Origin: Burkholderiales bacterium
GTDB lineage: Bacteria; Pseudomonadota; Gammaproteobacteria; Burkholderiales; SG8-39
DNA length: 64,000 bases
NCBI GenBank assembly: GCA_035310985.1
Contig: DATGDH010000139.1
Coordinates: 95,214 to 159,213 of the forward strand
Direction of reading: 5' to 3'
Positions 46,776 to 47,608 of this stretch are shown here, piece after piece. The notes under the pieces are model-generated. The model was given only the letters and a program-made list of their open reading frames with translations, made no database searches and had not been told where the DNA came from. The position numbers and the translations under genes were made by a program. How positions within the stretch are numbered: position 1 is the first letter of the stretch; each line of letters starts with the position of its first letter.

Positions 46776-46936
46776 GGCTGCCTCGCCTCCCGGAATTGTC
46801 CGTGCCCGTAGTGCGGGCATGCAATCGGCTCGTTGATTCTGGAGAGAATTTTTCTCTGGGAACTTTTCTGAGCGGGTTTCATCTTACCGTTAGACGATGT
46901 TAATCGTCTCCCGCTTCTCCTCCCTGAGCGGGTGCC

Positions 46937-47608
46937 TTAATTCTGATTAAGGCGTTTTCGCCCCCGGTTTATATCCCCTTTACCGGGGGCTTTTTTATTT
47001 TCGGCCCGGCGACCGGCGTCGCGCAGCCAGCCCTCGAGCAGGGCGCGCACTTCGGCGACGCCTTCGCGGGTAAGACTGGACAGGAGGCGCAGCTCGCCTT
47101 TGGGCACGCAGGCCTCGAGCTGGCGCTGTCCCGAACGTAGCGCGGCGATTCGCTGGGCGCGTGAGAGCTTGTCGCACTTGGACAGCAACACGAGCAGCCG
47201 TAGGCCGAGCGGTGCGAGCCAATTCAGCAAAGCGATATCCTGGGGAGTGAAGGGATGGCGCGCGTCCATGACGACCACTGCCGCCGCGAGCGACGCGCGC
47301 TTGCTCAAGTAACCGCCGACCAACGCGTCCCACTGCGTGCGCACGGCCTGGGGCACGCGCGCGTAGCCGTAACCGGGCAGGTCGACCAGCCGCCCGACCG
47401 CGCCCAGGTCGAAGAAGTTGATGGTCTGTGTACGGCCAGGGGTCTTGCTGACAAAGGCCAGTCGCCGACGTCCCGCAAGCGCGTTGAGCGCGCTGGATTT
47501 GCCAACGTTGGATCGGCCGGCGAAGACGACCTCGGGCGGACCCTCCGGCGGGAGCTGGTCGAGGCTACCCACGGATGCGGCGAACATGGCCTGTGAAAAC
47601 GCGCTCAT
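46937..47608 (-). CDS. engB: Ribosome-biogenesis GTPase EngB/YihA
   Basis: 223 aa from the ATG at 47608: G1 GRSNVGKSS, DLPGYGY, SKCDK. The basic C-terminal tail (ENKKAPGKGDINRGRKRLNQN) is encoded by a hairpin/T-run sequence on the opposite strand. Confidence 0.88.
   Translation of the reverse strand: MSAFSQAMFAASVGSLDQLPPEGPPEVVFAGRSNVGKSSALNALAGRRRLAFVSKTPGRTQTINFFDLGAVGRLVDLPGYGYARVPQAVRTQWDALVGGYLSKRASLAAAVVVMDARHPFTPQDIALLNWLAPLGLRLLVLLSKCDKLSRAQRIAALRSGQRQLEACVPKGELRLLSSLTREGVAEVRALLEGWLRDAGRRAENKKAPGKGDINRGRKRLNQN
46960..47001 (+). terminator. Orphan plus-strand rho-independent terminator embedded antisense in the engB 3' end
   Basis: 9-bp stem GCCCCCGGT/ACCGGGGGC (46960-46968 / 46982-46990), 13-nt loop, then TTTTTTATTTT. 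On the minus strand the hairpin is followed by CGAAAACGCC, with no U-run. Confidence 0.6.

Follow-up and report, generated by a model that had tools for sequence, protein, structure and literature searches.

The window analyzed here, a 64-kb stretch of DNA from an uncultured member of the Burkholderiales, carries hemB and engB on its minus strand, an orientation first read from the raw sequence in an earlier note and confirmed by matches to Pfam ALAD and TIGR03598 (Table 1). The TIGR03598 model ends at residue 191 of the 223 residues of EngB, and the last ∼20 codons of engB (46937-46999) run antisense to H2, H3, and the U-run of the element described below, with the intrinsic terminator embedded there as had been claimed. 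The best matches to the hemB of the window are 84 to 86% identical and are soil metagenome-assembled genome (MAG) and metagenome sequences, the closest being Burkholderiales MAGs. The gene order dsbD-hemB-sRNA-engB-cytochrome c4 is common to the window and Burkholderia cenocepacia J2315. The spacer is indeed AT-rich, with 46.4% GC at positions 46836-46960 compared to 66% for the window, and only ∼1% of 125-nt segments have a GC content of 50% or less.

Table 1. Genes and predicted RNA and promoter features at the hemB-engB locus (positions are those of the window)
Feature	Position	Strand	Remarks
hemB, 5-aminolevulinate dehydratase	45777..46775	-	Pfam ALAD, E 3e-131
hemB Shine-Dalgarno region UCCGGGAGGCGAGGC	46780..46794	-	Complementary to H1 loop; window-specific
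Inverted repeat TTCTGGAGAGAA-TTT-TTCTCTGGGAA	46837..46861		Extended AGAGAA hairpin, overlapping the -35-like element
Putative -35-like element GGAACTT	46859..46865	+	sigmaE/ECF02-type
Putative -10-like element TCTTA	46882..46886	+	16 nt after the -35-like element, 5 nt before conserved 5' end AGACG
Predicted anti-hemB sRNA, ∼107 nt	46892..46999	+	RF02837 match, fold, comparison with ncS04
H0, 5' hairpin AGACGAT-GTTA-ATCGTCT	46892..46909	+	Outside Rfam model; kept in subtype
H1, CCCGCT/AGCGGG stem, CU-rich loop UCUCCUCCCUG (anti-Shine-Dalgarno)	46910..46932	+	Invariant family core
H2, GCCTTAAT-TCTG-ATTAAGGC	46934..46953	+	Contains complement of engB stop (46937-46939)
U-rich linker GUUUUC, 5' of terminator	46954..46959	+	TTT nearly invariant in relatives' alignment
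H3, intrinsic terminator, 9-bp GC stem, 13-nt loop, then UUUUUUAUUUU	46960..47001	+
engB, YihA/YsxC GTPase	46937..47608	-	TIGR03598, E 5e-61

Comparison of the spacer with Rfam, which the earlier note had suggested, returned a covariance model match to RF02837 at positions 46907-46998 of the plus strand, with a score of 80.1 bits against a gathering threshold of 49.5 (E value of 4e-19). The match is full length (model positions 1-81 of 81) and is the sole Rfam match at the gathering threshold across the 64 kb. RF02837 is the anti-hemB family, alias "Burkholderia RNA 7." The element in the hemB-engB spacer is a member of the anti-hemB sRNA family (RF02837; ncS04 in B. cenocepacia) and is already catalogued in Burkholderiales, hence not novel. 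The architecture of RF02837, a hairpin with a CU-rich loop followed by a second hairpin and a Rho-independent terminator with its U-run, is found in the window, as is the location of the family in Burkholderiales, adjacent to hemB and on the opposite strand. Membership of RF02278 (Betaproteobacteria toxic small RNA) was also considered and rejected, since the score of 27.5 bits falls below the gathering score of 50 and the RNA of the window is therefore not a member of that family.

The anti-hemB family was first described in 2007. Of 20 Burkholderiales hemB loci, 13 carry it antisense and upstream of the gene, and it was present in all 20 sampled metagenome loci, which represented all subtypes; the subtype found in the window is common among uncultured Burkholderiales of soil and freshwater. 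In the window, hemB is on the opposite strand 134 nt from H1, and in nearly all related loci this distance is 70 to 300 nt. For the comparisons that follow, we used 135 related loci, 46 loci of the same subtype, a covariation alignment of 45 sequences, and 61 relatives in which the hemB start was mapped.

From the promoter motif and the 105-nt length of the B. cenocepacia homologue we infer a 5' end at ∼46892, and the 3' end is placed within the U-run at 46991-47001, as are the ends of ncS04 determined by 3' RACE. The resulting RNA would be ∼107 nt long (46892 to ∼46999) instead of the 130 to 170 nt first proposed. The 108-nt stretch has a minimum free energy of -47.6 kcal/mol (z score of -6.9), and none of 200 shuffled sequences folds as well. 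H0 (arms at 46892-46898 and 46903-46909) is present at exactly the coordinates read earlier, and compensatory changes are observed at three of its five pairs within the subtype. H1, which had been overlooked, is the most conserved hairpin, and the downstream copy of the direct repeat CTGAGCGGGT is none other than the 3' arm of H1; the two copies are at 46868-46877 and 46924-46933, the first having been placed one position off. The CCTTAAT/ATTAAGG repeat spanning the engB stop is likewise present as H2, although its limits were given slightly wrongly (arms at 46934-46941 and 46946-46953). The terminator stands as described, with arms GCCCCCGGT (46960-46968) and ACCGGGGGC (46982-46990) forming the 9-bp stem, the CU-rich sequence UCCCCUUU in the loop (46974-46981), and TTTTTTATTTT at 46991-47001 providing a U-run on the plus strand only. 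The U-rich linker together with the 3' U-run forms a layout typical of Hfq-binding sRNAs, and the RNA may likewise bind Hfq.

A further repeat, AGAGAA-TTT-TTCTCT, exists but is positioned at 46843-46857, ∼9 nt to the left of the site given for it. The four relatives closest to the window lack it, and, because it is not conserved, it probably lies outside the element. We therefore rejected both this hairpin and the upstream copy of CTGAGCGGGT as parts of the RNA, as they are located upstream of the predicted promoter or in its spacer and are absent from the nearest relatives.

Convergent genes commonly share hairpins, and a simple terminator scan gave three sites compared to 2.0 in shuffles, as would be expected if the hairpin at 46960-46990 were a mere convergent terminator, bidirectional or belonging to engB, and the other hairpins were chance repeats in an AT-rich spacer. 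This reading is almost certainly wrong, given that GAAAACGCC, and no U-run, comes after the stem when the minus strand is read, that the stem sits inside the engB open reading frame (ORF), and that the full-length covariance model match is accompanied by covariation and by conservation across the 135 loci.

The structural covariation that the earlier note had proposed to look for in orthologous spacers was found in the 45-sequence alignment. In this alignment 97.1% of the cells are paired, compared to 27 to 54% in slid controls, and 11 pairs show double changes, compared to 4.9 in shuffles, with none of 500 shuffles reaching 11. Covariation in H3 extends to six of the nine stem pairs. At the third pair of H1, 96 loci have C-G, 39 have U-A, and none is mixed, even though the search pattern for H1 permitted all four combinations there.

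The same alignment is informative about the strand, since 58 cells hold G-U and only 9 hold A-C, which favors the plus strand. Together with the one-sided U-tract and the conserved promoter motif, this asymmetry supports the plus strand as the one transcribed. The claim of a plus-strand sRNA ending in a terminator and antisense to the engB 3' end and the spacer is thus upheld by the RF02837 match, the expressed homologue, and the strand asymmetry. Could the hairpins instead serve chiefly as a structured hemB 5' leader on the minus strand, with the plus-strand terminator being incidental? A fold of equal quality is predicted for the minus strand (-45.9 kcal/mol, z score of -7.0), the strand was ambiguous in the original description of the "hemB motif" (Weinberg 2007), and in B. 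cenocepacia the hemB 5' untranslated region (UTR) includes the element, with a transcription start site (TSS) at -248. We nevertheless regard this as very improbable: the excess of G-U cells translates into many mismatches on the minus strand, the U-run is 3' of the stem on the plus strand only, the conserved promoter motif is oriented for plus-strand transcription and keeps a constant spacing, half of the element is within engB coding sequence in the window, and for the homologue a plus-strand RNA with matching ends was detected experimentally. By analogy, a structured hemB leader may coexist with the sRNA.

The overlap with engB could itself have accounted for the conservation of the terminator loop, and the earlier note had allowed that the hairpin might be absent in relatives where engB simply ends earlier. 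Across the 135 related loci, the RNA sequence is conserved, while the end of engB differs from locus to locus in its reading frame and in the place of its stop codon. In relatives, the engB stop can lie at any point between -28 and +326 relative to the H1 start, and the terminator is read in all three engB frames. In the terminator loop, CCCCTT is present in 45 of 46 loci that were selected regardless of their loop sequence, among them 14 of the 15 in which engB stops before it. Coding by engB was therefore rejected as the cause of the loop conservation, the motif being kept in those 14 loci and read in three frames elsewhere. This second conserved CU-rich motif may be a new detail of the subtype.

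Upstream of H0, the motif GAACYN-N15-17-TCNNA occurs at a fixed position in 38 of the 46 same-subtype loci, compared to 0.14% of shuffled upstream regions, and the copy at the sRNA is one of only two sigmaE-like matches in the 64-kb window. The TC..A of the -10 element is conserved across the subtype, its spacing to H0 is constant, and its end is 19 to 28 nt 5' of H1. A putative promoter of the sigmaE (ECF02/RpoE) form GGAACTT-N16/17-TCnnA is thus found at the right distance from the predicted 5' end. The consensus for RpoE/AlgU is GAACTT-16/17-TCCAAA (PMC4336711), and a Burkholderiales SigE uses the ECF02 consensus. In other subtypes a sigma70-like box is found instead; Burkholderia-like loci carry a TATATCAT-type box, and ncS04 is without the sigmaE-like motif. 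The sigmaE/ECF-like GGAACTT-N16-TCTTA in place of the sigma70-like box may be another new detail of the subtype, and, judging from these motifs, the sRNA of the subtype is probably transcribed under the control of an RpoE-like (ECF02) sigma factor. Promoters were described as largely uncharacterized by Sass (2017), and our literature search found neither an RpoE-dependent Burkholderia sRNA nor a described ncS04 promoter.

On the hemB side of the spacer, the 36-codon minus-strand upstream ORF reported earlier (46772..46882), with its ATGA overlap with the hemB start, does exist. We rejected it as a conserved hemB-coupled feature, as most of the 61 relatives are without an ATGA-overlap ORF, and those present have unrelated lengths and sequences. 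The H1 loop and the hemB Shine-Dalgarno region of the window are predicted to form a duplex of -23.1 kcal/mol (z score of -2.9), which ranks among the best 0.2% of 39-nt windows. This pairing was also rejected as a property of the family, the median z score among the relatives being ∼0, with only 7 of 61 below -2. The two best non-self pairing sites in the 64-kb window (22457-22516 on the minus strand and 49468-49524 on the plus strand) adjoin no long-ORF start and so are unlike start regions.

In B. cenocepacia, the hemB TSS at -248 from the ATG is beyond the sRNA 3' end, and the hemB mRNA is therefore antisense through the whole ncS04 gene. In the window, our promoter scan detected no promoter of the sigma70 type from which hemB could be transcribed across the sRNA gene, so a cis overlap with the hemB mRNA rests here on this analogy and on cotranscription with engB, and would require read-through from engB. 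In some relatives, hemB starts appear near-leaderless, and cis overlap with hemB would be absent in those.

These apparently leaderless starts, which would remove the cis overlap, are also what would be expected of a purely trans-acting, Hfq-dependent anti-Shine-Dalgarno sRNA, similar to the "double-hairpin"/toxic sRNAs of Burkholderia, for which adjacency to hemB is historical and neither hemB nor engB is a target. The two CU-rich loops, in H1 and in the terminator (the latter conserved where noncoding), the copurification of ncS04 with Hfq, and the weak, subthreshold resemblance to RF02278 at 27.5 bits are consistent with such an RNA, as are family members located away from hemB and some loci without a hemB match. 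We consider it possible but rather unlikely that this is the whole explanation, because subtypes of Burkholderiales whose promoters, H0, H2, and terminators are different nonetheless share very strong synteny with hemB and because the measured hemB 5' UTR of B. cenocepacia overlaps the sRNA fully. Action in trans is, moreover, compatible with our main explanation and does not exclude it.

The present analysis establishes that the element belongs to the family, has the fold described, shows compensatory changes within its stems and a strand bias, and occupies a conserved position adjacent to hemB. We hold with high confidence that these findings are best explained jointly by an anti-hemB family member, a plus-strand RNA of ∼107 nt transcribed from its own promoter and probably acting by base pairing. 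Such an RNA would start near 46892 under control of the promoter at 46859-46886, fold into H0-H1-H2-H3, and end in the U-run at 46991-47001 inside the convergent engB 3' end. Its partner in cis would be the engB-hemB or hemB leader transcript, to which it is fully complementary, and the mirrored hairpin loops could nucleate a duplex that alters the stability or translation of the hemB mRNA. Acting in trans together with Hfq, the RNA could use its CU-rich loops to block Shine-Dalgarno sequences. RpoE-like (ECF02) control would tie the sRNA to envelope stress. We tentatively propose, as a plausible idea in which we place less than even confidence, that the subtype represents an sRNA under RpoE-type (envelope-stress) control, with two conserved CU-rich loops, and would link envelope stress to heme synthesis through hemB and possibly to EngB, a ribosome-assembly GTPase whose gene it overlaps at the 3' end, other subtypes having switched to housekeeping sigma70-type promoters. 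If true, one conserved sRNA core would have been rewired to different sigma factors across lineages.

Anti-hemB is a long-known orphan sRNA that adjoins hemB in a synteny spanning the Burkholderiales, and our literature search found no validated target or regulator for any member. The comparative details leave the classification of the element unchanged, but the subtype-specific promoters, the conserved CU-rich terminator loop, and the variable engB tail overprinted by the terminator are footholds for cheap experiments. The case also validates the reading of raw sequence, in which an orphan terminator and a stack of hairpins in locally AT-rich sequence led to the correct recognition of a real sRNA gene.

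Cis-antisense systems of the CopA/CopT type, in which the antisense RNA overlaps a 5' UTR and pairs by loop-loop contacts, resemble the locus in that both strands would give mirror-image stem-loops with fully complementary loops, and the hemB leader of B. cenocepacia is similarly transcribed through the ncS04 gene. CopA/CopT serves plasmid control, whereas the locus of the window is chromosomal. The enterobacterial sigmaE-dependent sRNAs MicA, RybB, and MicL are also short, Hfq-type RNAs with an intrinsic terminator and an upstream promoter-like motif similar to GGAACTT-N16-TCxxA, but they have no sequence or Rfam relationship to the RNA of the window, for which sigmaE dependence is predicted. 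Their seed is the single-stranded 5' end, acting on omp/lpp mRNAs, while the putative seed in the window is in hairpin loops. The "double-hairpin" sRNAs of RF02278 (ncS03, ncS05, and ncS27) come from the same bacterial order, combine a hairpin whose loop bears the CU-rich anti-Shine-Dalgarno motif CUCCUCC with a GC-rich terminator downstream of it, and are proposed to act by ribosome-binding-site occlusion; they have two hairpins and are dispersed in multiple copies, compared to four hairpins and a fixed hemB-linked locus in the window.

The closest known system is ncS04, a 105-nt RNA with a TSS at 292949 mapped by differential RNA sequencing (dRNA-seq), 3' ends mapped by RACE, and a Northern signal; it copurifies with Hfq, and its level was unchanged in all conditions with tabulated fold changes. 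It begins with a 5' hairpin ahead of H1 (CCCGCUUCUCCUCCCUGAGCGGG), which is followed by H2 and the intrinsic terminator, and it lies between divergent hemB and convergent engB within the same dsbD-hemB-engB-cytochrome c4 neighborhood, its length of 105 nt being close to the ∼107 nt predicted here. The window differs from it in its uncultured Burkholderiales host and in the sigmaE/ECF-like upstream motif, where Burkholderia-like loci have the TATATCAT-type box, and from the RF02837 consensus in the 13-nt terminator loop with UCCCCUUU, which Rfam treats as an insertion. Finally, the last ∼62 nt of the sRNA of the window overlap engB, whereas engB of B. cenocepacia ends 67 nt beyond the sRNA.

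A covariance-model scan of positions 46500-47300, a comparison suggested in the earlier note, matched RF02837, the anti-hemB family ("Burkholderia RNA 7") of Rfam, at 46907-46998 on the plus strand; the score of 80.1 bits exceeds the gathering score, 49.5 (E 4e-19), and the match spans model positions 1-81 of 81. This was the sole Rfam family at threshold in the entire 64-kb window; the element belongs to an already catalogued sRNA family, and standard annotation would label it. The earlier note had proposed a plus-strand antisense sRNA between hemB and engB, and this interpretation is supported by the family match, the fold, the strand bias and the data for ncS04, the Burkholderia cenocepacia J2315 member of the family. 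The toxic small RNA family RF02278 scored 27.5 bits at the locus, below the required 50, which rules out membership; the weak likeness arises because a CU-rich loop and a terminator are common to both. What remains of interest are the features of the window's subtype (anti-hemB loci sharing window-type H1 and H2, two of the four predicted hairpins H0 to H3): a putative sigmaE-like promoter, a conserved CU-rich terminator loop and an overprinted engB tail.

Features of the hemB-engB locus, and engB stop positions relative to the H1 start in 57 loci with convergent engB
Feature	Position	Strand	Remark
hemB	45777-46775	minus	Pfam ALAD, E 3e-131
36-codon ORF	46772..46882	minus	
AGAGAA/TTCTCT inverted repeat	46843-46857		
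GGAACTT, -35-like	46859-46865	plus	predicted from motif
CTGAGCGGGT direct repeat	46868-46877 and 46924-46933		
TCTTA, -10-like	46882-46886	plus	16 nt after GGAACTT; ends 5 nt before AGACG
AGACGAT/ATCGTCT inverted repeat (H0)	46892-46909		
CCCGCT/AGCGGG hairpin (H1)	46910-46932		missed in the earlier note
GCCTTAAT/ATTAAGGC inverted repeat (H2)	46934-46953		
engB	46937-47608	minus	TIGR03598 YihA/YsxC, E 5e-61
Terminator stem, 9-bp GC (H3)	46960-46968 and 46982-46990		U-run side: TTTTTTATTTT at 46991-47001
engB stop inside H2	+27		window arrangement
engB stop in terminator loop	+56 to +73		
engB stop in U-run	+81 to +89		
engB stop well past sRNA			Burkholderia-like loci
engB stop upstream of H1	-22		Bordetella-like loci L036, L173, L174

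Direct reading of the sequence recovered every element that had been listed between hemB and engB, with small coordinate slips; the AGAGAA/TTCTCT repeat is present, though not at 46852-46866, where it had been placed. The core of the element is H1. GC content is 46.4% in 46836-46960 compared to 66% for the window, an AT-richness reached by only ∼1% of 125-nt windows. Other strongly AT-rich islands (∼32051-32475, 2676-2825, and 62676-62800; 40-47% GC versus 66%) gave no Rfam match at the gathering threshold. A 17-codon plus-strand ORF at 46896-46949 (MLIVSRFSSLSGCLNSD) begins 4 nt inside the predicted sRNA. No Shine-Dalgarno sequence precedes its ATG, which close relatives do not keep (AGACGAGTTGATCG), and the ORF almost certainly does not encode a protein.

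For the window RNA (46892-46999), the predicted fold has four hairpins and a free energy of -47.6 kcal/mol (z -6.9). When 45 window-subtype sequences are aligned, 97.1% of cells across the 28 pairs are paired, falling to 27-54% when partners are slid. Both-side changes occur in 11 of the 28 pairs compared to 4.9 in column shuffles, with none of 500 shuffles reaching the observed value; these compensatory changes support the fold. H1 is invariant within the subtype; family-wide, the third pair of the stem reads C-G (96 loci) or U-A (39 loci) with no mixed case, under a retrieval pattern that permitted all four combinations. The minus-strand fold is energetically as good as the plus-strand one. 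We assign the functional sRNA to the plus strand because the alignment holds 58 G-U cells versus 9 A-C cells, the U-run follows the terminator stem on that strand only, and the ncS04 experiments agree. The minus-strand copy may matter too, as a hemB leader paired by the sRNA.

The window HemB is closest to uncultured soil Burkholderiales (84-85% identity to MAGs, up to 86% in metagenome contigs). RF02837 lies directly upstream of hemB on the opposite strand in 13 of 20 Burkholderiales hemB loci, and a degenerate H1 pattern search returned 120 metagenome loci, making 135 distinct instances with the genome loci. All 20 loci sampled across subtypes passed the Rfam threshold, and in nearly all loci long enough to tell hemB is encoded 70-300 nt from H1 on the other strand. 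The window element belongs to an sRNA family whose structure is under constraint and whose place beside hemB is fixed.

A HemJ-like protoporphyrinogen oxidase gene follows the sRNA terminator on the same strand in 33 of 78 other-subtype loci (L006, L008, L012, L015, L020 and 28 more) versus 0 of 45 window-subtype loci; the ORF (MLWIKALHI...) matches TIGR00701 at E 8e-31, below the curated cut-off, and starts ∼188 nt after the H1 start in L008. In these loci heme-synthesis genes flank the sRNA on both sides, and it could double as a hemJ leader. Many Comamonadaceae-like loci (e.g. L083, L114, L154, L185, L015) share a conserved GGCACAATTTTC(C/G)nn immediately ahead of the hemB ATG. It resembles a -10 box at the spacing expected of a hemB mRNA with no leader or hardly any, in which case the cis-antisense overlap with the sRNA would vanish in these lineages.

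The Rfam model begins at 46907, ncS04 opens with a 5' hairpin, its start being ∼26 nt ahead of H1, and the hairpin AGACGnn...nnCGTCT (46892-46909) is kept in the window's subtype with compensatory changes; the sRNA ends and promoter as placed here are predicted. GAACYN-N15-17-TCNNA stands at a fixed position in 38 of 46 window-subtype loci versus 0.14% of shuffled upstream regions, and the remaining 8 carry near-variants such as AAACTT. The motif follows the RpoE/AlgU (ECF02) pattern, GAACTT-16/17-TCCAAA (PMC4336711), a consensus whose use was shown for a Burkholderiales SigE (PMC3490749), and by its sequence would assign the promoter to an RpoE-like sigma factor. An extended -10 sigma70-like box (TGnTAnnnT) is found in 49 of 84 other-subtype loci versus 0 of 46 window-subtype loci, and Burkholderia-like loci have a TATATCAT box upstream. 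The GAACYN-type motif has just two matches in the whole window. The other, at 43036-43062 of the plus strand (GAACTTCCGGAAGTCGTCGCGGTCCCA), lies ∼57 nt upstream of a probable dsbD start (43119); two GAACTT-N16-TCNNA matches versus 0.53 expected by chance are alone not significant. We found no description of this sRNA's promoter in the literature, and promoters are largely uncharacterised according to Sass 2017.

The EngB family model stops at residue 191 of 223, and the last ∼20 engB codons (…NKKAPGKGDINRGRKRLNQN) are encoded opposite H2, H3 and the U-run, on the complementary strand. Across loci the terminator is read in all three frames (…KKAPGKGD…, …IKSPR*, or a stop at TAA), its nucleotides being conserved and the encoded peptide not. 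Selection therefore acts on the RNA, and the basic engB tail is a by-product that is tolerated. The overlap is at its most extreme in the three Bordetella-like loci, where engB spans the entire sRNA gene, H1 included, and has a conserved-looking tail ...AFVKAPAQGGEAGDMTPVV. The 13-nt terminator loop contains UCCCCUUU. With the window's subtype defined by H1 and H2 only, 45 of its 46 loci have CCCCTT there, among them 14 of the 15 in which engB stops before the loop. The constraint on this second CU-rich motif, handled by the Rfam consensus as an insertion, therefore acts on the RNA.

Other proposed parts of the element fell away. Of 61 relatives, most have no uORF with an ATGA overlap at hemB, and where one occurs its sequence is unrelated. 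The closest relatives lack both the AGAGAA hairpin and the first CTGAGCGGGT copy, which in the window are located at the predicted promoter or upstream of it. The H1 loop can form a duplex with the window hemB Shine-Dalgarno region (46780-46794) at -23.1 kcal/mol (z -2.9), a value within the best 0.2% of all 39-nt windows; this complementarity is not conserved in relatives (median z ∼0). Between 46780-46794 and 46913-46927, 13 of 15 positions are complementary in the window, partly in the related locus L108 and not in other relatives; hemB control may have been reinforced in this lineage, or the match may be chance.

We found no minus-strand terminator between engB and hemB in the window, and a promoter scan upstream of the sRNA gave no sigma70-like candidate for hemB. 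engB transcription would then continue into hemB, and the engB-hemB RNA would bear the hairpins in mirror image; these could pair loop to loop with the sRNA and so form a duplex altering the fate of the hemB, and possibly the engB 3'-end, mRNA. Trans repression of ribosome-binding sites is also plausible, given the two CU-rich loops and Hfq-type 3' module. In the window's subtype, sRNA production might follow an RpoE-like envelope-stress signal.

The hemB/anti-hemB motif was reported in 2007 from comparative genomics, with the strand ambiguous and the terminator-bearing strand proposed to encode a non-coding RNA (PMC1950547), and a 2026 preprint found the family upstream of hemB in several Burkholderiales families. 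Our literature search found no validated target or regulator for it. The 105-nt ncS04 lies between hemB (BCAL0264) and engB (BCAL0265) of J2315 in the orientation <- -> <- (hemB/ncS04/engB), with a dRNA-seq start at 292949, 3' RACE ends within the U-run, a Northern signal, co-purification with Hfq reported by earlier work, and levels unchanged in every condition with tabulated fold changes (PMC4603805, PMC5688073). The primary hemB start maps to 293115, 248 nt ahead of the ATG (supplementary TSS table, PMC4603805). This lies past the ncS04 3' end at 293053 (PMC4603805), so the J2315 hemB 5' UTR covers ncS04 completely in antisense. Expression, a 3' end at the terminator, Hfq association and complete overlap by the hemB leader are thus all documented for this homologue of the window RNA.
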